Assembly (NCBI GenBank): GCA_964016885.1
Contig: OZ024756.1
Span: 41,726,001 to 41,790,000 of the forward strand
Reading direction: 5' to 3'
Origin: Eledone cirrhosa
Lineage: Eukaryota
Length of the DNA: 64,000 nucleotides
Every line of letters begins with the position of its first letter. Within the stretch, counting starts at the first letter, position 1. The notes below the pieces were generated by a model. The model saw nothing but the letters and a program-made list of their open reading frames with translations, did not search any database and was not told the DNA's origin. Shown here in pieces: positions 17,566 to 50,994 of this stretch. A program made the position numbers and the translations under genes.

Positions 17566-18954
17566 GTTTTCTCTTTCTCTTAATTTCGAGTATATTTTTT
17601 TGACCGGCCACCTTCCTGGTGGCAAGGTTGTAAAAGAAAAGAAATTGTCATCCCTTGAATCGCAAGAATGTTTTGCATATTTTGAAGGTGCCAGCTATCG
17701 CAGCCATTTGTAGACTATGAATTAGGGAGCTGCGCTTTTTGTCCGCAAATCCAAGTTCGGTCATACTTTGGTCCAAGCGGGTTGGTATATAACCCGTAGC
17801 ACCAATAATGATGGGTATGAAGCTAAAGGTGTATCTTGGATACTGGATTTGTAAACTCCTCATCAATGGTCCGTAGATGTCCTCCTTCTCCTGTATTTTT
17901 CTGACAACGTTTACATCAAGCGGGCAGCTGATCTCCACAACAGAACACGTTTTCAATGTGTGGTCCCAAACTACAATATCAGGCCGGTTGTGCTTTAATT
18001 TGGTGGCAGTTTTTATTTTCAGGTTCCACCAGTATTCCTTAGTGCCATCTGTCTCAATATATTCTTCCTCGTTTGTTGTTAATTTTGTTTTCCGAAGTGC
18101 GTTCCAGATAGTTCTAGCTATCCCATCGTGTCTCATGGGGAGGTAGTAGCGAGATGACATTCTTTCGCAGCTGGCAACAATGTGGCTTACATCCTCGATC
18201 TTTGTTTTACATAGCCTACATTTATTGTCAGCTGCTGGCCCTCCTCTTTTGTGCAGCAGATATTTGGTAGGGAGTTCTTGTTCCTGTATTGCATAGAGAT
18301 ATCCCTCAAGGTGTGATGTCATAAACTTGTCGGAACTCCATGCCAGGCTTTTTGAGTGGTTTATCCCCTCTCTGGTCTGTGTTTTACGCCTCAAGTATCC
18401 ATGCACAACTTTCTCTGTAAATTGGTCAATTTTTTTTTCTTGTTTGAACATTGAATAGGATCTTCCGATTTCTCTGGGTGAGAGATTTATATCAGGCTTT
18501 ATTCCATATCTCTCCTCCAGATCAGTCGCTATTCTAATGATATTTCTTTTTTCATGCTCATAAACCTGAGCAAGATGGTCGCCAACCTTTTTCCTCTGTT
18601 GAAGGTGTTGCTTCAGTGTTACTATCCGGGTCTCATATGTTGTTAATATTGATTTTAGACCCCGGCCACCTTCCTTGCGTGAGAAGTATAGCCTATCCAC
18701 ATCACCATTGATGTTAAAGTTCCCAGTAACACTGAGAAGTTTTCGAGTTCTAACATCCATCTCACTTAGTTCTTGCAATGACCAGTTCAGTAGGCCAAAT
18801 GTTGGCGTTAGAATTGGCACAGCATAGGTATTGTGGGCAATGTATTTGTTGTATGCTGACAGTTCTGATGACCATATTTTTTTTTTACTCTTCTGAGGTA
18901 TTCAGTTCTGGTTCTCTCCTTATTTATGGGTCCATCATATCTGACATTCTCATC
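17566..18954 (-). mobile_element. 5'-truncated R4/Dong-clade non-LTR retrotransposon (RT C-terminus, CCHC finger, restriction-like endonuclease) in (CATA)n
   Basis: ORF 17648-18820 has RLYFSRKEGGRGL, CRLC...EDVSHIVASC, RHD, KHNRPDIVVWD and EISCP...K...Y. There is a frameshift at the T run near 18880. Confidence 0.9.
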
Positions 18955-22254: not shown

Positions 22255-24450
22255 AAAAGTGAAGAATACATGGTCAACAGTACAAAAAAGGGATTTATTT
22301 ACAGTCTAACAATTGTTTCACTGCTTAAGTTGTCTAAAAATTGCTGAACACTAGAAGCAGAGCCACTCAATTTCAAATACGTGTTAGCTTAATCAGATCA
22401 TCAGAGACAACTATCCGGTAAATTACAAATTCAAATTACAGCATCATTAATAATATTAATAATAAAGATAGAGAGAGAAAAAAAGAAAGAGAGATAGATG
22501 AAAAAAAGAAAGGAAAAGGAAAAAGAAAACAGAGAAAGATATAGAGAGAAAAAAAGACATAGAGAAAGGAGGATACAGGAGAAATAAAGGTAGAGAAAAA
22601 GAAAAATAGAGGGAAAATAATGATATCAACAATAAATGAATAAATGTAAATAAATAAATAAACAAGTTACATCGAGGATGATACAAAATAATACAAAATA
22701 TGAAAATAAATAAGTAAAAATGTGCGAAGAAATTTAAACATATTAAGATTATTGAGAGTGGTTAAAATATAGAGATACGAAGGTATAAACATGATAATGT
22801 TAAAAATATTTATGTGTATTGGTTATTTTAATAAATTAATTATATAATTAATTAATTATTTGATTAATTAAGTTATATTAGAAGTGAAAATAATATGATA
22901 AGATAAAATGCCAGAGATGAAATAAATTTAGGGAAATAGAAAGATAGAAAGTGAAAGATAGAGATATATAAAATATGAATGTAAAATATAAGAGGTTATG
23001 ATGTTGGTTCATTGATAGATGATGACAATTATAACAATAATAATGATGATGTGATATTATAATAGATCGAAGTGGTACAATTTGGGTTATGGAATAGATT
23101 AGATGAATTAAGCTGGTCTAAAGTTTTCAAATTTGGTCGCCGTTTTATGCCTACAGAAAATAGTTCTTTCAATTTTACTGTTAAGTAGCATTTTGTTGTA
23201 ATTTAAAATTTGGAAAAGCTCCATATTACAAAGACCACAGTGGGACATGCCAATTCGATAGGCCATTGCTGTTGATAACTTTGTCCAGCTGATTTATATT
23301 CCATGTTTGCATCTCTGAGTTGCCAGATTTTATTGGTGAGTGTTGTTGTATTTATGAGTTTCCTGTTATTCATAGGGTGTATATGGACATACCACCTTTT
23401 CTTAAACTCCCCAGCTGTGGAACCTATGTAGTGCCATGCTAAGCTGCCTGAATTTATAGTACATAGGTACACTATATTTGACTCCAGGCATCTATTTTGT
23501 AATGGGCATTTGTCAGGTAGATGATAGTTACATTTAGATGCCTTCCTATGTGCCGGTTCTTCGATATGCTTTTGCAAGTTATGTACGGGCTGAGAATTGG
23601 GTTTGTTGATGTATTGTGGTGATGGGCTCTGATGTGTGTTTGGTTGCGATGATGTTATATGCTTGTGTTTTGTATTTGGTGTTATGGTACTTATTTACGG
23701 GGTACTTGTATTATACATTCTCTTATAGTTAATTTTATGTATGTGCGATTCTATGTTGTTGGCAGTGGAGTATGATAGTTTGATAGTTTTTCTATTAAAG
23801 ATTTTATGATATTTATGAATTTTAAGGAAGTGTTTGTCAACTAATTTGAAGAAAGTGTAAGGTAGTTTTGTTTTTATAAAGGAGTTAAATATTGAACCAT
23901 AAGTACTTTCTATCTCTACATCTTCTATAGTTACTAGTGGTCTTTCTATTAGTATTCTGTTCAATTAATTCTCGTGGTTGTTGCCAATTTCTATGTTTAG
24001 TCCTAGATTTGCTGCTTCTATAGGTGTGGATAGAGTTATTTCTATTAAGTGTGTTGTTATTTTTTGTATCTGGTATGTATTTGAGCCTCTCTTTATGTCC
24101 TGCCTTAAGTAAAGCTATGTTGTAGTAGTTAGCGTGTTCGTCAAAAATCTCTAGTTTAGAAGATAGGCGTGATATTCTAAGGGATATACTATGTGCTATG
24201 GAGTTAATTATGGATTGAGGGTGATTAGAGTTATAATTAATGTAAGCTAAATTTTAATTATTTTTATGGAAGGGTTCTATTAGTCTAGTGTTTAGGTTAA
24301 ACGATACATCTAAGAAGTTAGCTTTTTTAGAGTTGAGTTCAAAAGTGTTGTTAAGGCCTAATTTATTAAAGAATTTTCTAATCTTTTTCCGTAATCTTTC
24401 TAAGTTTAGATTATTTAGGTTTTTAGCTAAAAGTAATGTATCGTCTCTAT
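22255..24450 (-). mobile_element. Decayed Penelope-like element (probably Naiad-type): RT fragment, GIY-YIG endonuclease and 3' region with a hammerhead
   Basis: YRDD...NFLDVSFNL (RT, ~24254-24450); LVDKHF...HKIFNRKTIKLSYS (23695-23964); C-N-[Y]-x5-CPLQNRCL...IVY...YIGST...FKKRW..H and a frameshifted CGLC (GIY-YIG, ~23150-23577). Stops and frameshifts are present. Confidence 0.85.
22304..22408 (-). ncRNA. Minimal type I hammerhead ribozyme in the 3' end of the Penelope-like element
   Basis: Minus strand: gtct-CTGATGA-tctgattaag...cttaagcagt-GAAA-c-aatt-g-TT-agac; long loop II and palindromic loop III. Confidence 0.75.
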
Positions 24451-26500: not shown

Positions 26501-26612
26501 AATGCTTACGGCACCTAGGGTTCCCAAGTGGTCCCCCATCTAAGTACTAACTAGGCTCGACGTTGCTTAACTTCGGTGATTGGACGAGAACCGATGTTTT
26601 CAGCGTGACATA
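26500..26612 (-). pseudogene. 5S rRNA pseudogene lacking the first ~10 nt, embedded in (TA)n
   Basis: Minus strand: tcacgctgaaaacatcggttctcgtccaatcaccgaagttaagcaacgtcgagcctagttagtacttagatgggggaccacttgggaaccctaggtgccgtaagcattt, which matches the animal 5S pattern with several substitutions. Confidence 0.9.
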
Positions 26613-26619
26613 TATATAG

Positions 26620-26710
<91 letters not shown>

Positions 26711-34279: not shown

Positions 34280-34565
34280 AGTAATTATGCTTTGAAACAG
34301 TGAGCAGGTTTGAAGTTAGAAAATAGAATAACTTTCACCGTATATTTGACTAAAGGAATTTTAGTCTGATAATGGGGTTTAGAACCCTCAGATAAATGGA
34401 AAAAGATGAGGTGTTGGTGTAATGGTAGCACAGTGGTCTGGATAACCAAAGATGTGGGTTCGACTCCCATGTACGGCAACACTCATCTTTTTCCATTTAT
34501 CTGAGGGTTCTAAACCCCATTATCAGACTAAAATTTCTTTAGTCAAAAATACGGTGAAAGCTATT
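34280..34565. mobile_element. Fold-back element with ~90-bp arms (34327-34416 / 34477-34565) enclosing a tRNA-like sequence
   Basis: The arms are near-perfect reverse complements. The core has A box TGGTGTAATGG, an anticodon-like arm tggt-ctggata-acca and B box GGTTCGACTCC. Confidence 0.8.
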
Positions 34566-36658: not shown

Positions 36659-38032
36659 CATCATCATCATCATCATCACCGTTTTACGTCCGTTCTTCCA
36701 CGCTAGCATGGGTTAGACGGGTTGTCCTGTTGTGGGCAGTGTCTGGTCGGCTGACCATGCCTTGCTCATACAGGAACTGATCTGGCTTGATTTCTACAGC
36801 TGGATGCCCTTCCTAACACCAACCTCATTTACAGTGAGTGCTGGGTGCTTTTTCGTGGCGCCTACACGTCCACTTTACAGTGTGGGCTGGGTGCTTTTTT
36901 GCCGTGGCACCTCCACGGCCACCTTGCGGTGGAGGGGGGGGGGGGGGGGGGCATGTTGTTTATATGCTTCAGCATGTACCCATGGGAGGTCGGGTACCCT
37001 GTATTACTGCGTGACGCCAGAAGTCACGGTCGTGTGTCATTGACTTTGAGAGGTGTAGTTGGGTAAGGTCGGCTTTTATCACCTCATCCCAAGTCATCTT
37101 GGGTCTCCCCACTCCGCGGTTTCCATCAACTTCTAGTGCTCTGCACCTTTTTATGCAGCTGTCATCCTTCATACGCATCACATGTCCATACCAGCGTAAC
37201 CGCCTCTCCTGCACGCAGCATTTGATACCTCTTATGCTCAGTCTCTCTCTCAATTCCTTTATGCTTTGTCGTTCACGTATATTACTGTTACACATCCATC
37301 GGAGCATGCAGGCTTCGTTTCTCTCTAATCTACGTAAGTCTTCCACCTTCAGCGCCCAGGTCTCACTACCATGCAACATCGCTGTTCGGATACACGCATC
37401 ATACAGTCTGCCTTTCATTCTGAGGGAGAAGCCTTTTGCAGCTAGCAGTGGTAGTAGTTCCCTAAACTTCTTCCATCCCGTTCTTACCCTAGTTATTGTA
37501 CTTTCTGAGCACCCACCTCCGTTGCTAATTCGGTCACCTAGGTAGCAGAAGCTGTCTACTGTTTCTACAGGGCCCTCCCAGAGATTGGTGGTACTTGTTT
37601 CCTGTGGCTGTTTGCTTGCTGTTTCAGCACAGCTGCTGCATGTGAATCCTACATTCTTAATTAAGCTTCCTGAGATCCCGCTACATCTCTTGTGTACCCA
37701 TTGTTTGCATTTGGGGCAGAGAATGGAGTTTCTACCTACACCTTTCCTACATACTGAGCAAGGCCATTTCCCTGAGGGGATCTGGGTTCTGTTTTCTCGT
37801 CTACTTACAAGGACCTTAGTCTTTGTCATGTTGACTTTGAGGCCCTTTCTCTCTAGTCCCTGCTTCCAGGTTTGGAATTTATTCTCTAGTTCTACCATAG
37901 ATTCAGCTATGAGTGCGAGGTCATCAGCATACAGGAGTTCCCATGGGCATCCGGTCTTAAACTCCTCCGTTATTGCCTGCAGGACTATGATGAACAGGAG
38001 AGGGCTAAGAACAGAGCCCTGGTGGACCCCAA
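36659..38032 (-). mobile_element. 5'-truncated RTE LINE (RT C-terminal half, Cys-rich insert, 3' UTR)
   Basis: GVHQGSVLSPLLF...ELLYADDLALIA...FCYLGD...MLHGSETW...RRLRWYGHVMR...GRPKMTW; (TGA)n tail. Confidence 0.92.
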
Positions 38033-38152
<120 letters not shown>

Positions 38153-40862: not shown

Positions 40863-41231
40863 ATAAATTAATAAAATAATGAATAAACAAAGAAACAGTT
40901 CCTTATATTAAAAAAATTCATCATTTTTTACGATCGTTTCTAGGATATATATGTGTTAGAGTTGGTATGCATATTCTATAGATCTATAGAATATGCATAC
41001 CAACTCTAACACATATATCCTAGAAACGATCGTAAAAGATGATGAATTTTTTTAATATAAGGAACTGTTTCTTTGTTTATTCATTATTTTATTAATTTAT
41101 CTTGACTCTGTTTTCCGTTTATTTTTCACCGAAAGTAGTTTTTGAATGCATCTTCTCTTTTCATGATATCCGGATTACATTGAGTTCTTCATACGGATTG
41201 GACACTACCGTAAACTTTTGGTAGACTTATC

Positions 41232-41234
<3 letters not shown>
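40863..41234. mobile_element. Zero-spacer fold-back (~120-bp arms, centre 40982/40983) plus a ~134-bp tail; same family as 50454-50994
   Basis: Centre ctataga|tctatag; contains only the 3' half of the hammerhead (GAAAcgatcGTA). Confidence 0.85.
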
Positions 41235-41289
<55 letters not shown>

Positions 41290-42238
41290 GTTTTATCAAA
41301 AGCCTTATTTCGAGAAAATCAAAATTTGAAATGCGACCCAATAGGAGGAAGCTGATATAATCTTTTCTTTGAGCCAAACTACTTTGATGTATATTTTATG
41401 TGTCAGCTTCAGAAGAAATAATTACACAAATGTTGTAAAAGTGTTTCTTTTATTCAAAGGTCAACTCCAAATAGGATAAACTCCTCTTCTGCCAGAAACA
41501 ATATATACCAGTGTAGATAGAGAGTTAGTTCATGAACTGTCTATCTACACTCGACTATACCACTGCTTGGCCAATATATTCATCTACTTTTAATAATTTC
41601 TAGTCTCTAACTTGTGTAGGACTCATCACATTTCCTGCTAGTTAATTTATCAGGCATATGACTTAGTGGTTAAAGAATTGGATTCACAATAACAAAGTTG
41701 TGAGTTCGATTCCCAGCTGGAGCAATGCAGTATATTGAGTCGTTTATTGACGTCAACTTGACTGCAGGTGGATAGAACATTGGATAGAATGCTTTATGGT
41801 ATTCCAGCTCGCTGCTCTCTGAGTTCAAATCACACCGAGGTCAATTATGGTCGTCATCCTTTCAAAGTCAATAAAAAAAAAATACCAGTCTAATACTGGG
41901 GTGGATTCTTCCTCTCTCTGGAATAAATCTGCTGTACTCATGCCTGGACAGAGATGGGCTCTGCGAGGCTTAAAATGCCCAAGAAATGCCGTATGTCACT
42001 ACGGTGCCTCTACAACTATATCAGGAGTTACGAGACAATACATACAACTTGACTGTACTGAATAGCTGTAATAATAACTTTTTAAAGTCTAGATAACTGA
42101 GAAATCAGTTATCTAGACTTTAACAATTTGTTGAAAGATTGTCAATTGTAAACATTTCATGACTAATTCACATGGAAAGTTTTTACATTATGAGATAAGG
42201 CAGCCTTGATAATTTAAAACACTTCTCTACTGAATAGT

Positions 42239-42298
<60 letters not shown>

Positions 42299-42315
42299 GT
42301 AGTAGGGTGCTTATG

Positions 42316-42363
<48 letters not shown>

Positions 42364-42379
42364 TAGTAGGGTGCTTATG

Positions 42380-42413
<34 letters not shown>

Positions 42414-42819
42414 TAGTAGGGTGCTTATGATGTGTGTGTTTGTGTGTGTGTTTGTGTGTGTGTTTGTGGCAGTAGGTGCTTGTGATGTGTGTGTGTGTAT
42501 ATGGCAGTAGGGTGTTTGTGTGTGTGTGTGTGTGTATTTCGAATTTTTTCATATTTGGTTGGTAAAACTGTATTTTTTTTTTTTTTGTATTATTTAATGT
42601 CTCTGAAGTACTCAATACAGAGGAATTAAGTGTTACTTCCTTCTGTATTTTTTTTTACATGCATAAATCAATTAGATAAACCTTGGTTATGTATTTATTT
42701 ATTTTGTATATATACAGTATATGTTAAATATTTATATATGTGTATGTATATATATATATATGCATATACATATGCATGTATATATTTTTCCTATGTCTTT
42801 CTCTCCCCTTTCTCTATAG

Positions 42820-43095
42820 GTCTATTCATCGGTCTATGTTTCTTCACTGCAAATGTTGTCGTGGGGCTCTACTTCAGCAAGAGACAAGCATTGGCAGTAA
42901 GTCTTGCTACAACAGGAAACGGTGCAGGTGTGTTTGTTGTGAATTATATCATCGACAACCTCCTCAACTTTTATGGACTGAGGGGAACTTTACTCATTTT
43001 GTCCAGTTTGGTACTTAACATGGCCGTAGCGGGAGCTCTGTGCCGACCCCTAAAATACAAACTTGTCGAGAACACTGATAATGATATGCCTCTCA
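42820..43095 (+). CDS. SLC16 family protein, coding exon 3
   Basis: GLFIGLCF...YFSKRQALAVSLATTGNGAG...YGLRGTLLILSSLVLNMAVAGALCRP; 276 nt, tag| and |gtaagt. Confidence 0.93.
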
Positions 43096-43111
43096 GTAAG
43101 TTGATACATAC

Positions 43112-43142
<31 letters not shown>

Positions 43143-43205
43143 CTTCTTCTTCTTCTTCTTCTTCTTCTTCTTCTTCTTCTGTTGCCAATGTTGTTGTTGT
43201 TTCAG

Positions 43206-43318
43206 ATGAGATAAGCAGCTGTCAACAACTAAACACCCCAGTAATAGACAAGACAACAGAAACTATCAAGAAGACAACCTCAGAAAACAACATTGATGAG
43301 ACCCATATTTCCCTGATG
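43206..43318 (+). CDS. SLC16 family protein, coding exon 4 (central cytoplasmic loop)
   Basis: tttcag| then NEISSCQQLNTP...ETHISLM |gtaaat; 113 nt, which supplies the required phase 1 to phase 0 change. Confidence 0.8.
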
Positions 43319-43609
43319 GTAAATTTATAGTTCTGATAACCTCAAATAAAGTCCTGAGTTGTGTGGTTTATATACAGGACTACCTGATATATAACACATA
43401 TACAAACACATGTGCACCGACACAGACATAGGCCTATGTCATGCTGGTTATATACCGAGGCCAGATGTGAAATATAGGCTTCCCAGATCTGTTTAATGGC
43501 TCAGGCCAGATATGAAATATAAGATTCCCAGAGCTGTTTAAAGCCTTCTTTAGCCATAGAAACCATACCAGAATGAAATGTATGAATAAGACAACACAGC
43601 CATTTGATT

Positions 43610-43910
43610 TTACAGGGTGGACTGGGTGCTTTTGTAATGACACCAGTACTACCAGTTTACAGGGTGGACTGGGTGCTTTTGTAATGACACCAGCACTACC
43701 AGTTTACAGGGTGGGCTGGTTGCTTTTGTTATGACACCAGCACTACCAGTTTACAGGGTGGGCTGGGTGCTTTTGTTATGACACCAGCACTACCAGTTTA
43801 CAGGGTGGGCTGGTTGCTTTTGTTATGACACCAGCACTACCAGTTTACAGGGTGGACTGGGTGCTTTTGTTATGACACCAGCACTACCAGTTTACAGGGT
43901 GGGCTGGGTT
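43610..43910. repeat. 47-bp minisatellite (~6.5 units) resembling the RTE 3' UTR motif ttacagtgtggactgggtgctttt
   Basis: Period measured 43611 to 43658. Confidence 0.85.
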
Positions 43911-44063
43911 CTTGTTGCAATTGTGAGGTTGTGAGTTTGATTCCCAAATTGGGTGATGTGTTATGTCTTTTATAACACTTTACTTCATGTTGCTCTTTCT
44001 GCCAAAATACTCACTTCTGTTTTTCTCTCTCTTTTTCTTTGTGGTTCTACTCCAATTCTTCAG

Positions 44064-44220
44064 ACAGTGAACACAACATCTCAGGATAAAGATAACCAAA
44101 CTACTGACAAAAAGTCTTGCTTCCATTCCGTTATTCACAAATTATCCATATTCTTTGATTACCAAATACTGAAGAATGCCAACACCATTTTCATGATCAT
44201 GATTTATTTTCTATGGTCAG
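44064..44220 (+). CDS. SLC16 family protein, coding exon 5
   Basis: TVNTTSQD...FFDYQILKNANTIFMIMIYFLWS; cag| and |gtgagg; 157 nt. Confidence 0.88.
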
Positions 44221-44607
44221 GTGAGGATACATTTTATTTCTTTTTTGTGTGTGTTATGGTTAGTTTGTGGGGCTAATCCTGATGACACCCACAATTCTTC
44301 ACTCTCTCTTCATCTACTTCTCTCTCTGTCTGTCTGATGGTTGATCAATGAATGTTTAACCCTTTAGCATTTACATTACTCTATATATAAACTATTGTAT
44401 TTTCACAGTAAACATTTTATCTCACATAATATCAAATCTACCTTAATGTCTGTATGACCAGCCGGTTATGGCCGGTTTGAACAGAAAAGGGTGACAGAAT
44501 TCTGGCCAGATATCTTGACTCTTTTCCTATTACCCACTCTACTACCCTGAGTATCGAGTACTCTGGTGCGTTATGGTCCACTTGGTTCCTTACCACACTT
44601 TCTTTGT

Positions 44608-44651
<44 letters not shown>

Positions 44652-44723
44652 GTACAACCTTAAACATTTACTAGAACAATGAAAACACTTTCCAATCTTT
44701 ATATCTTTTCACCTTTGTTACAG

Positions 44724-44984
44724 TAAACTTTGTCGTCTATGTCTACTTGCCACTGTATGCCAAGACCTTAAATCTTGATGGCACCATGTTGATCTCAATC
44801 AGTGGAATGGGATTCACAGCTGGACAATTCCTGCTGGGAATCTTCATAGACTTTTTCCACATCAAGAGTGATTATATGATGACCACCTCAATGCTGATTA
44901 TGGGAAGTTGTAGCATTGCTATTCCACTGGTTACAGATTTTTATCCTTTGGCAGCCATTTTACTCATCTGGTCTATAGCTGGAG
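44724..44984 (+). CDS. SLC16 family protein, coding exon 6
   Basis: [16 protein letters not shown]...[17 protein letters not shown]...IWSIAG; 261 nt, |gtaaga. Confidence 0.92.
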
Positions 44985-45152
44985 GTAAGAAAGATTTAGT
45001 AGTCTTCTTCTTCTTCTTCTTCTTCTTCTTCTATCATATATCTGTATGTGTCTCCATCTCTCTTACCATCCCATTCTCTCTATCTGTAATGCCTTCATAT
45101 ACACCTCTAATATATATATATATACATATATATATGTATATATACGTATATA

Positions 45153-45212
<60 letters not shown>

Positions 45213-45213
45213 C

Positions 45214-45277
<64 letters not shown>

Positions 45278-45356
45278 TATCCCGATGTCTTCCAAAAGTA
45301 ACGGTTGCATTTTGTAAGGGTATGTCAATATTTATTTATAAAACTGGTATATATTG

Positions 45357-45421
45357 TATTTTGTCTGATGAAAGCATACCATAGTTTAACATGGTATCCT
45401 TGAAATATGTATAATAAAATA
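45357..45421 (+). ncRNA. Minimal type I hammerhead ribozyme
   Basis: tattttgt-CTGATGA-aagcataccat-agtttaac-atggtatcctt-GAAA-t-atgt-a-TA-ataaaata. Confidence 0.78.
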
Positions 45422-45459
45422 GATATGGTTATATAAATATAGTTTCCATTTGTTAATAT

Positions 45460-45503
<44 letters not shown>

Positions 45504-45612
45504 TATATACATATATATATATATATATTCATATATATACATATATATATATACATATATATATATACATATATATATATGTACATATATATATACTTAC
45601 ATATATATGTAC

Positions 45613-45645
<33 letters not shown>

Positions 45646-45660
45646 CATATATATATACAT

Positions 45661-48597
45661 CATCATCATCCTCATCATCATCGTTTAACGTCCGTGTTCC
45701 ACGCTTGCATGGGTTTGGACGGGAGTTTTCCCACTTGAGGCAAGAGTGGTTGTCTTGCTCGCATAGGACTGTCTGGCGGGTTTTCTACAGTTGGATGCCC
45801 TTCCTAACACCAACCACATTTACAGTGTGGTCTGGGAGGTTTTTACCGTGTTGCCTACACGGTCACATTACAGCGTGGACTGTGTGTTTTTTTTGTCGTG
45901 ACACCTACACAATCTCATTTGTTTCGGGCTGGATGTTGTGGGACCAACATAACTTTACATTGAAAGGGGCGGTGTGGATGGGGTGGGGGTGGTGGGACGG
46001 GGGTGTATTTTGTTAGAGATGCCTACTGACTGTAGTAGGTTTTACTTTGTATTTAGGTAAGGCGGGTCTTCTCTATTACTGAGTACCGCCAAAGGTCTCG
46101 GTCCAGTGACATTGTCTTGGAGAGGTGTAAGTGTGTGAGGTCGGAATTTATCAGCTCGTCCCAGGTTTTTCTGGGTCTGCCTACTCCGTGGCTACCGTCT
46201 ATCTTTATTGCCCTGCACTTTGCTATACAGCTGTCGTCTTTCATGCGCATCACGTGACCATACCAACGTAGCCTTCTCTCGAGTAAACATCTGATCCCTC
46301 TTATTTCTAATTTTTTCCTTAGTTCGTTTATGCTTTGCCGTTCGCGTATATTACTATTACACATCCAGCGGAGCATGCAAGCTTCGTTCCTCTCTAGTCT
46401 GCGTATATCCTCTGCACACAATGCCCAGGTCTCACTGCCATGCAACATTGTTGTTCGTATGCAGGCATCATACAACCTGCCTTTCATTTTTAGGGAGAAC
46501 CCTTTAGCGGCTAATAGTGGTATAAGCTCTCTGAACTTTTTCCATCCAGTTCTGACTCTAGCTACTGTACTTTCGGAGCACCCTCCCCCACTGCTGATTT
46601 TGTCACCCAGGTAACCCTCTGCGCAGTTGAAAGAGCTAATATTTTGTGGGCACTTGCTGCTACTTATTGCACCAGAGCACCGGCCACATGTAAAATCTGT
46701 GTTCTTAGTTAGCTTACCTGTGATCCCACTACATCTTTTATGCACCCATACTTTGCATTGGGGACATAAAATGGAGTTTCTACCTACGCCTTTCCTACAC
46801 ACTGAGCATGGCCATTTCCCGGAAGGGACCGGCGCCGTATTTTCTTTCCTACAAACAAGAACTTTAGTCTTAGCCAGGTTAATTTTAAGGCCTTTTGATT
46901 CTAGGCCGTGCTTCCATGTTTGGAATTTCTTCTCTAGCTCGGCCATTGATTCAGCTATGAGCATTAGGTCATCTGCTTATAGGAGTTCCCATGGGCAGCC
47001 GGTCTTGAACTCCTCTGTTATAGCCTGAAGAGCAATAATGAATAGTAGGGGGCTAAGAACAGAGCCCTGATGGACACCAACTTTTACGCTAAACTCTTCA
47101 CTATATTCGTTGTTAATTCTAACCTTGCTCACTGTTTCTTTATACATGGCTTGTATAGCTCTCACAAGCCATTCGTCAACACCTAGTTTTCTAAGGGCCC
47201 ACCAGATAATGGAACGGGGGACTCTGTCGAAGGCTTTCTCCAAGTCGACAAAGGCTAAGTATAGGGGTTTACTTTTAGCTAGGTACTTCTCCTGTAGTTG
47301 TCGTACAATGAAAAGAGCGTCTGTGGTACTTTTGCCTGACACAAACCCGAACTGCATTTCATCTAAATCGATTCTCTCTCTGATTAGTTGCACTATTACT
47401 TTTTCCATGACCTTCATGACCTGGTCGATTAATTTAATCCCTCTTACCCTTGTAACAGTTAATGGTGATGCTGCTACGCCAGTCCTTCGGAACAACCCCA
47501 TTCAGTATGACTTGGTTTACTATCCGGGTGACCATGGTGTGTCCCACCGTTCCAGAGGCCTTCAGCATCTCAGCAACTATTTCCAAAGGCCCAGCCGCCT
47601 TACCCGTCTTCATATCTTTGATTGCCTTACTTATACTACCTTCAACTAACACTGCTGGTCCCTCTATTGGATTGATCTGGGGGAGACTATCCTTCTCCCA
47701 TTTATTCTCCTCATTTAGTAGCCTCTCGTAGTGACACTTCCAAGCGACCTTCTTATCAGCGTCAGTGATGGCGAGTACGCCATCATCATTTAGTACACAC
47801 TTCTCCCCAACAATATCACGGTTTTCCTTGACACATTGCCTAGCAATCCTGAACACCTCACGTTTTTGGTTGGTCCTCGCGTTGTAGAACATGCTTGAAC
47901 TTTCTTTCCTCTGCTTCCCTTCTTGCAAAGTACACTTGTCTCCTAGCTTCCCTCCTGGCCACTTGATAGTCTTCTCTACTTCTCCCATCCCGCCATATTT
48001 TCCAAGCCTGCTTTTTGGCCTTAATCGACTCCTCCACCTTACTGTTCCACCACCATGTTACTCTCCTCCTGCCTATAGGCCTGCTCCTGCCACAGACTTC
48101 GTCTGCCCCCATCAGCAGGTTTGCTTTCAGGAATTCCCACTGTCCCTCTATATTGTCTGACTCTAAATGCTCTTCCTTACTGTCGAAAGCATCAAGTAAT
48201 ATGCTTTGAAATTTATTTCTGGCTGTGGGGTCCTTTAGCTTCTATATTTTTCTCTTGAGGATAGTCCTCTTCTGCTGTCGAGTACGTCTCGTCCTGACTA
48301 TGAGGTCGCTAATTATCAGTCTATGTTGGGAGGTGCATTCTTCATGGGGGAGGGATTTAGTGTTTACAACAGTCACTCTGTCACGTCTTCTGGTAAGGAT
48401 ATAATCTACCTGGCTGGTATGTTCCACTGATCTGTAGGTGATCAAGTGATTGTCTCATTTTTTGAAGTTAGTGTTACAGATTGTTAGGTTATTTGCGTCA
48501 CAGAATTCCAGGATTCTGGAACCTTCCTCATTTCTAGTACCAAACCCATAGCCTCCATGGATTTCATCATAGCCGTCACAATGTTGTCCAACGTGAC
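45661..48597 (-). mobile_element. RTE LINE, ~2.9 kb, 5'-truncated within the APE domain, frameshifted
   Basis: HVG...[30 protein letters not shown] (APE); QFGF..GKSTTDA, FVDLEKAFDRV, GVHQGSVLSP (RT); (TGA)n tail; several stops and frameshifts. Confidence 0.93.
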
Positions 48598-48821
48598 ATA
48601 TATATATATACATATATATATACATATATATATATATATTCATATATATATATACATATATATATATATATTCATATATATATATACATATATATATATA
48701 CATATATATATATATACATATATATACATATATTCATATATATATATATACATATATATACATATATATATACATATATATATATACATATATATATATG
48801 TACATATATATATATATACAT

Positions 48822-48868
48822 ATTCCTGATGATTTCTAAAGAATGAAACAGTTCTAGTCCTGTAGAAT
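48822..48868 (+). ncRNA. Type I hammerhead ribozyme forming almost the whole of a ~55-bp island in (TA)n
   Basis: attc-CTGATGA-tttc-taaa-gaat-GAAA-cag-ttctagtc-ctg-TA-gaat; matches the copy at 61435-61485. Confidence 0.78.
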
Positions 48869-48874
48869 CTCATC

Positions 48875-48920
<46 letters not shown>

Positions 48921-49000
48921 TATATGTACATATATATGCATATATATATGCATATATATATATATATGTATATATATGCATATATATATATATATGTATA

Positions 49001-49067
<67 letters not shown>

Positions 49068-49249
49068 GCATATATATACATATATATATATATATGCATA
49101 TATATATATATATGCATATATATATGCATATATATGTACATGTATATATACATATATATATATATATGCATATATATGTACATATATATATATACATATA
49201 TATATATATATGCATATATATATGCATATATATATACATATATATATAC

Positions 49250-49280
<31 letters not shown>

Positions 49281-49431
49281 CATGCATATATATATATACA
49301 TGCATATATATATATACATACATATATATATATACATACATATATATATACATACATATATACATACATATATATATACATACATATATACATACATATA
49401 TATACATATATATATACATACATATATATAC

Positions 49432-49468
<37 letters not shown>

Positions 49469-49574
49469 CATATATATACATACATATATATATATATACG
49501 CATACATATATATACATATATATACATACATATATATATATATACACATATATATATACATATGTATATATACA

Positions 49575-49606
<32 letters not shown>

Positions 49607-49621
49607 CATATGTATATATAC

Positions 49622-49668
<47 letters not shown>

Positions 49669-50059
49669 CATATATACATATATATATATACATATATATA
49701 TACATATATATACATATATATATACATATACATATATATACATATACATATATATACATATACATATATATACATATATATACATATATATATATACATA
49801 TATATATATACATATATATATATACATATATATACATATATATATACATATATATACATATATATATACATATACATATATATACATATATATATATACA
49901 TATATATACATATATATATACATATATATACATATATATATACATATATATATATATACATATATATACATATATATATAGACATATATAGACATATATA
50001 TATATATATATATACATATATATACATATATATATACATATATATACATATATATATAC

Positions 50060-50090
<31 letters not shown>

Positions 50091-50221
50091 CATATATATA
50101 CATATATATATACATATATACATATATATATATATATACATATATATACATATATATATACATATATACATATATATATATATACATATATATATACATA
50201 TATATATACATATATATATAC

Positions 50222-50258
<37 letters not shown>

Positions 50259-50259
50259 C

Positions 50260-50303
<44 letters not shown>

Positions 50304-50383
50304 ATATATATATATACATATATATATATATACATATATATATACATATATATATATACATATATATATACATATATATATAC

Positions 50384-50442
<59 letters not shown>

Positions 50443-50453
50443 CATATATATAT

Positions 50454-50992
50454 GTAGATAAATCTACCAAAAGTTTACGGTAGTGTCCAATCCGTATGAA
50501 GAACTCAATGTAATCCGGATATCATGAAAAGAAGAGATGCATTCAAAAATCACTTTCGGTGAAAGATAAACGGAATACAGAGTCAAGATAAAATATTAAA
50601 AAAATAATGAATAAAACAAAGAAACAGTTCTTTATATTAAACAAAAAAAGTTCATTATTTTACGATCGTTTCTAGGACATATATGTGTTAGAATTGGTAT
50701 GCATATTCAAAAGATCTATGTACAAAATTATACAAACTATCAAGGAGAATATACATACCATCACATATATATGCTGTCTTCAGAAATAAATATTATTTCT
50801 GAAGACAGCATATATATGTGATGGTATGTATATTCTCCTTGATAGTTTGTATAATTTTGTACATAGATCTTTTGAATATGCATACCAATTCTAACACATA
50901 TATGTCCTAGAAACGATCGTAAAATAATGAACTTTTTTTGTTTAATATAAAGAACTGTTTCTTTGTTTTATTCATTATTTTTTTAATATTTT

Positions 50993-50994
<2 letters not shown>
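50454..50994. mobile_element. Fold-back element: 202-bp arms (50588-50789 / 50793-50994), 3-nt spacer and 134-bp tail; each arm holds a full hammerhead
   Basis: + strand 50792-50928: attattt-CTGAAGA-cagcatatatatgtg...cacatatatgtccta-GAAA-c-gatc-g-TA-aaataat; mirrored at 50655-50789. Confidence 0.88.

Follow-up and report, generated by a model that had tools for sequence, protein, structure and literature searches.

How does a single retroelement insertion come to carry two head-to-head copies of its own 3′ part, only one of which bears a tail? This question is raised by two palindromic insertions, copies A and B, in a 64,000-nucleotide stretch of the Eledone cirrhosa genome (assembly GCA_964016885.1, contig OZ024756.1, positions 41,726,001 to 41,790,000, forward strand; hereafter the window). 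Judged by sequence, both palindromes are 3′ stumps of a Penelope-like element (PLE) of the Hydra clade. The origin of the inverted pseudo-long terminal repeats (pLTRs) and one-sided tail of PLEs is stated as an open question in PMC8557442 and PMC3846280. We propose, with a probability of about 0.7, that the palindromes are 5′-truncated insertions made by programmed twin priming.

In what follows, T0 is the first base of hammerhead stem I (T in offsets such as T+1), S is the short 3′ end and L is the long 3′ end (S+134). In subfamily B coordinates, S is T0+203 and L is +337. Genomic loci of the family are named L plus a number (e.g., L123), and a bare L always denotes the long end. The two palindromes are made up as follows:

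40863..40982, minus strand: copy A short arm, 5′-truncated, ending at the fixed short end S and joined to (TA)n.
40978..40987, no strand: copy A fold, a 10-nt palindrome native to subfamily A, within hammerhead helix II.
40983..41100, plus strand: copy A long arm, portion common to the short arm (to S), with the 3′ half of the hammerhead only.
41101..41234, plus strand: copy A tail, 134 bp, ending at the fixed long end L.
50454..50587, minus strand: copy B tail, 134 bp, with end L at 50454.
50588..50789, minus strand: copy B long arm, T+1 to S, with a complete hammerhead motif at about 50654-50789 and a predicted cut between 50661 and 50660.
50790..50791, no strand: copy B junction spacer, 2 nt, untemplated, at the head-to-head joint.
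50792..50994, plus strand: copy B short arm, T0 to S, with a hammerhead motif at 50792-50928 and a predicted cut after 50921; T0 is the presumed RNA 5′ end.

The arms of copy A align over 234/240 positions, with one substitution and one 2-bp indel, and those of copy B are identical (202/202). Both short arms end directly before CTTGACTCTG, both tails end in TTATCTAC followed by (TA)n, and (TA)n is found on both flanks of each copy. This bears out a first-pass annotation of the window, which had noted two palindromic insertions of one family with differing arms (~120 vs 202 bp), a common short-arm stop and a one-sided tail of ~134 bp. Copies A and B are about 89-90% identical and hence belong to different subfamilies. 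They were the only family members recovered with a long-arm query of the window; a whole-window scan for inverted repeats was swamped by (TA)n. The annotation had also described a variable fold point. Fold positions do differ between the copies, but there is a strong hotspot at the start of stem I, and copy A folds on its native palindrome. The fold of copy B does lie at the 5′ edge of stem I, leaving a full hammerhead motif on each strand; the "two divergent ribozymes" seen there are better described as two motifs, putative as ribozymes. In copy A, each arm has only the GAAA/cleavage half of the hammerhead, without CUGAAGA.

The family is large: a 20-base anchor has 4,796 matches, corresponding to about 4,800 arms in the genome. 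Longer copies extend upstream into an open reading frame (ORF), and a full copy of ~5.5 kb has the order pLTR, tail, 5′ untranslated region (UTR), ORF, long 3′ region, pLTR. The tail thus comes after the upstream pLTR and before the first Met of the ORF, and in full-length copies it runs on into the 5′ UTR and ORF. An intact 834-residue frame in L123 contains, as read by eye, a reverse transcriptase (RT; YRDD) along with a GIY-YIG domain at the C terminus (IVY..YIG); a Pfam search of the ORF returned no families. The L123 motifs agree with the published Hydra alignment, and RWR, DKT, CNCRNKANC, CRLC and CNH are present in P0001 or sibling copies. The published marks of the clade are RW(K/R), DKT, a CxCX5C linker, CxxC/CxH around E and N, a C-terminal GIY-YIG and (TA)n targets (PMC8557442). 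Among 116 L ends, pure (TA)n comes next in 78, the rest being 8 read-throughs, 9 with a different repeat and 21 scored as "other", for the most part impure TA runs. Partial tandem pLTRs, the inverted 5′ copy and the tail occur in L111, L112, L117, L165 and L169. With a single ORF for RT and GIY-YIG, pLTRs, inverted copy and tail, the elements qualify as endonuclease-bearing (EN+) PLEs, and motifs together with the (TA)n preference place them in a probable new family of the Hydra clade whose tail is unusually long. The notion of a non-autonomous 925-bp element was given up, as copies continue into the ORF. A non-LTR retrozyme, defined as a head-to-tail tandem of short hammerhead units (bioRxiv 10.64898/2026.07.22.740005), was also rejected: the units here stand head to head and continue into an ORF-bearing element.

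The 3′ ends were counted in an unbiased set, the first 100 of the 4,796 anchor matches in genome order, with end classes that include four hand corrections. These arms end at S in 57 cases and at L in 37, with three interrupted tails and three read-throughs. S ends are exact in 40/57 and at most 4 nt off in 49/57; hence the short-arm stop, which the first-pass annotation knew from two copies, is not random across copies. The 20-base anchor is blind to ends located upstream of it. With a second anchor, upstream of T0 (3,481 matches, of which the first 30 loci were used, giving 29 arms), 28/29 arms reach the S region or beyond, one stops in a microsatellite near T+14, and none of the 29 ends at the hammerhead cut. 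Among unpaired copies, S is the commonest end (~28 S vs 14 L); this ratio, like the arm-length asymmetry and the counts of 5′ starts near T given below, was obtained by hand.

The two ends are paired by a rule. A first survey yielded 103 head-to-head candidates, 70 of them with both ends resolved. In 68 of the 70, one arm ended at S and the other carried tail (65 scored automatically, two with partial tail, and L099 corrected by hand); one L+L and one S+S pair made up the remainder. Mixed pairs accounted for 26/27 in the unbiased subset. Since independent end choice gives at most 50% mixed pairs, this corresponds to P ~2e-7 at p=0.5. Twenty more regions added 14 S + tail pairs and one L+L pair, besides three unresolved cases, a duplicate and a convergent pair; in four pairs among them, one or both ends had been scored before. 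Combined, one S arm faces one tail arm in 82/85 resolved junctions, and the suggestion made at first pass, that two defined 3′ ends are used in one integration event, stands. The three same-end exceptions (L177, L221 and L298) repeat flank on both sides, over ~57 nt, a short stretch and ~150 nt, respectively. The same flank on both sides is the mark of DNA fold-back copying. In L298 (435-3840), the copied flank of an L+L palindrome is joined by microhomology to a separate 33-nt S stub, and this locus likely records twin priming plus fold-back in one event.

The 5′ starts cluster as well. In the unbiased set, 26/100 arms start at T-2 to T+10, whereas the 98 nt upstream contain 2 starts and the 140 nt downstream 17; positions +1 to +3 serve as starts about as often as 0 does. 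Although the template base at -1 is C, G precedes T0 at 222 places, and all 30 of the inspected G-before-T0 sites are 5′ junctions, on both S and L arms. The base before T0 is T in 326 cases, most of which come from (TA)n or folds. When the first 100 of 356 matches are counted, G stands 50 times before T0, as compared to 10, 4 and 8 times before +1, +2 and +3. The context of T0, a pyrimidine followed by A, is initiator-like. For L1, an untemplated 5′ G has been interpreted as possibly copied from the cap (PMC9341517). There is good support for T0 as an RNA 5′ end, likely a capped transcription start.

Other features are seen at the same end points. A piece resembling a short interspersed nuclear element (SINE) sits exactly at T0 in 7/100 unbiased arms, with differing sequences and lengths. 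Such insertions, which we take to be SINEs, were found in L186, L091, L093, L097, L143, L167 (both arms), L026 and L069, and suggest a strong target preference for ATTATT. SINE pieces of 85-180 nt in the arms were considered as a mark of a second template and dropped, as they differ and look like later insertions. At the L ends of L151, L157, L193, L198, L211, L219 and L220, (CA)n or (CT)n comes first and then (TA)n; the repeated unit is the last template dinucleotide, with a difference in length between L219 and L220. These repeats could stem from slippage as RT initiates or from a later expansion of the microsatellite. De novo repeat synthesis at the ends was discarded, the (CAT)n flanks of L210 belonging to neighbouring repeats.

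The reach of the arms bears directly on how the palindromes arose. Among 68 pairs, the S arm extends further 5′ in 22, the L arm in 14, and both end within 30 nt of each other in 32. In the 22 pairs, each arm has sequence absent from the other, the S arm reaching further 5′ and the L arm carrying the tail; in the 14, it is the L arm that extends further on either side. In six pairs (L145, L151, L163, L190, L205 and L233), the L arm lies wholly in the tail, so that there is no overlap and no palindrome. Because a fold-back copy cannot contain sequence absent from its template, this reciprocal unique sequence favours two target-primed reverse transcriptions. The asymmetry is seen in young copies that are 99% identical to siblings (L035, L041 and L044). 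Most folds at T have spacers of 0-3 nt or short locally copied inserts, without a native palindrome; exact scoring of microhomology is confounded by point mutations, so junctions were read in young copies only, and the L198 row is an artefact. Same-end pairs run through L into flank, and fold-back copying, where seen, therefore does not stop at S. Partner arms differ at a mean of 3.0 sites, versus a median of ~17 to other copies (39 pairs), and share private indels, which points to a common lineage. In vitro, an anole PLE cuts and extends both strands, and its RT starts at two internal RNA sites bounding its tail (PMC11167929). Where the first-pass annotation had left the choice between two priming events and snap-back synthesis, the former fits better and the latter less well.

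Under twin priming, a cut in (TA)n would leave two 3′-OH ends, and each would serve as primer for reverse transcription: one target end at RNA site L, the other 134 nt upstream at site S. Synthesis of each complementary DNA (cDNA) would go on until it aborts or arrives at the RNA 5′ end, T0. Head-to-head joining of the cDNA ends would follow, either blunt, by 1-4 nt of microhomology, or with short locally copied inserts, and each cDNA would serve as second-strand template for the other. Copy B would correspond to a pair of cDNAs, 203 and 336 nt long, each extended as far as the RNA start, and copy A to two aborted cDNAs annealed at the native 10-nt palindrome; for copy A alone, snap-back is a possible alternative origin. 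Either one RNA would be copied twice, which needs strand displacement, or two RNAs would be held in an asymmetric dimer. The RT of PLEs is not known to have RNase H. A bolder version, which we offer tentatively and with the odds somewhat against it, makes integration obligatorily double-ended: seated on one capped RNA, an asymmetric RT-endonuclease dimer would prime both target ends from two programmed sites, and the cDNAs would make each other's second strand. Unpaired copies would be those in which the second cDNA aborted within a few bases, and T0-terminated minis would be strong-stop cDNAs. Very short arms do occur, namely tail tips of ~5, 13 and 20 nt in L235, L234 and L175 and the S stub of L298. 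If this version is true, a strong-stop cDNA jump to the 3′ pLTR would also explain the partial tandems.

The palindromes are real insertions. A fold-back chimera of sequencing or assembly might be suspected for copy B, whose arms are 100% identical; no short read or contig bridged either window locus. Against this, ends are fixed, the left flank is not the same as the right, and in older pairs the arms have mutated independently (53 unshared vs 5 shared private changes in 45 pairs). Moreover, independent short reads contain the S-(TA)n junction (178 reads in X15 and 204 in X16), L joined (22 and 53 reads) and head-to-head joints ending at the same T hotspot, which makes a chimera hardly credible. 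Could the repeat already exist before integration? Self-priming on an antisense transcript, put forward by Arkhipova (2013) for the junction palindromes of Adineta PLEs and one of the proposals for inverted pLTRs (PMC3846280), would make it so. However, the junctions are numerous and different, mostly without a native palindrome, and both arm types stop at the sense-strand start of stem I with the extra G; this origin is very improbable here. We judge it equally improbable that the palindrome is a non-autonomous unit transcribed and copied whole, such as a palindromic retrozyme or an element resembling a miniature inverted-repeat transposable element. There are many T0-S and T0-L minis, which could contain an internal promoter like that of Penelope (PMC2377424), but fold positions span from the tail to >4 kb upstream, and junction letters differ between loci. 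In addition, the same T fold recurs in different subfamilies, with arms matching each other by subfamily.

The most serious competitor, though still an unlikely one, is snap-back of an L-primed cDNA, with the endonuclease cutting the hairpin at S and later central deletions making the arms unequal. It would account together for one S plus one L and for near-identical arms; endonuclease-mediated resolution is the source of the tail proposed by Craig in 2021 (PMC8557442). Copy A folds on a native palindrome, 32/68 pairs are near symmetric, and fold-back copying does happen, as L177 and L298 attest. Yet large one-sided deletions would be required in the 22/68 asymmetric pairs, including the young L035, L041 and L044 and the six non-overlapping ones. 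Snap-back leaves S as the main solo end unexplained, and the fold-back copies actually observed pass S and L into flank. A primer loop would not fit in junction spacers of 0-2 nt, and both tail ends are RT start sites in vitro (PMC11167929).

Several observations nevertheless weigh against twin priming or parts of it. Among the 103 junction candidates, 33 are unresolved, and some arms end inside the element (e.g., L143, L186 and L188), which may reflect ordinary L1-type inversions or later damage. L arms are without a clear pile-up at S, and the (TA)n flanks mask any target duplication. Loci L191-L250 were picked for 5′ ends at T, which inflates T folds and pairs with a longer S arm; symmetric fold-back with later central deletion could mimic the arm asymmetry. 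As regards the 5′ end, the G at 12/30 loci has other possible sources: it may be templated by the partner arm or the flank, or derive from a local duplication or a 1-nt L tip. AATAAA lies at T-14 to T-9, 9 nt upstream of T0, in 141/144 arms, with neighbouring positions varying between subfamilies, and T0 might be a 3′-processing site rather than a start site. Both arms may or may not come from a single RNA molecule: private variants common to the two number only 5 across 45 pairs and are free of A>G bias, and the partner is closer than the nearest other copy in only 6/39 pairs.

The hammerhead core has its exact modal form in 223/298 arms. Features of a type I hammerhead are present: CUGANGA and GAAA cores, a NUH cut site, helix I and a palindromic helix III. 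Helix I starts at T0 and its strands covary one-sidedly, while helix II, of ~105 nt, has A-U to G-C compensatory changes at two pairs. The G10.1-C11.1 pair that closes helix II in type I PLE hammerheads (PMC4209133) is absent: C faces A at the base, and the first pair (A-U or G-C) is one step outward. An Rfam scan of the window returned no hammerhead at gathering score. Element ends do not coincide with the predicted cut site. Opposite-strand hammerhead pairs 100-700 bp apart had already been noted in Schistosoma (PMC4209133).

Related elements were also encountered. At 23114-24448 (minus strand), a second PLE family of Hydra type is represented in the window by a decayed 5′-truncated copy adjoining (TA)n (32-50% protein identity), and other intact Hydra-type ORFs are found in L132 and L136. 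Between subfamily A variants, an internal segment of the 3′ region is inverted (reference L165, about -615 to -426 from T0). Elsewhere in the window are a 5S rRNA-like copy with its 5′ end replaced by TA-rich sequence (26503-26621, minus strand) and a tRNA-like match (34408-34478, plus strand). Long open frames at 2-2302, 17651-18901, 36972-38033 and 46056-48057, all on the minus strand, resemble by eye the ORFs of non-LTR retrotransposons.

How do these copies compare with known systems? The fold-back architecture reported at first pass is present, and it had been published before: inverted pLTRs, one-sided tails and palindromic junctions are on record for EN+ PLEs (PMC3846280, PMC8557442). 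Pen2a_Av (PMC3846280), the elements of PMC8557442 and Drosophila virilis Penelope (PMC2377424) share with the present family a head-to-head inverted 5′-truncated copy, a tail at one end only, a pLTR hammerhead and partial tandems. Their tail measures 30-40 nt and lies within the ORF start, whereas here it measures 134 nt and lies upstream of the first Met. It is called optional in those papers, in contrast to the 82/85 pairs with one S and one L found here, and a G-marked 5′ stop is not described in the published accounts compared. Within the Hydra clade, Hydra-1_Obim (PMC8557442) has the clade marks and (TA)n targets in common with this family, but its protein is visibly different by eye, indicating a distinct family. 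It is <3 kb and listed as "no pLTR", whereas here the element is ~5.5 kb with a long repeat-rich 3′ region, a clear pLTR and tail, and a helix II of ~105 nt. A functional parallel is PAc, the anole Poseidon element (PMC11167929): its tail lies between two internal start sites, it cuts and extends both strands, and it has an AT-rich target and a ribozyme cut that is not used for the ends. PAc belongs to a different clade, and in that account its two sites are not tied to the two arms of one inverted insertion.

In L1 twin priming the arms are not known to overlap, whereas the present family has a fixed second site and arms that as a rule overlap into palindromes. Common to both are two primings at one target site and cDNAs joined head to head (PMC10760644). 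Our literature search, outside which older subscription papers lay, turned up no statement of twin priming for PLEs and, in titles and the openings of abstracts, no mention of the pairing rule or of a cap G in these elements. The inverted repeat with one-sided tail and the two in vitro RT start sites were known; new here are the counted rule of one S plus one L, the long tail in a Hydra element and the stop marked by G. The family is young, with ~4,800 arms, and its 134-nt tail sets the start sites far enough apart to score each arm. It thereby yields a counted rule, a distinct signature of fold-back and exact predicted coordinates for T0, S and L. Overall, these copies help to decide how the architecture known from other PLEs is formed.

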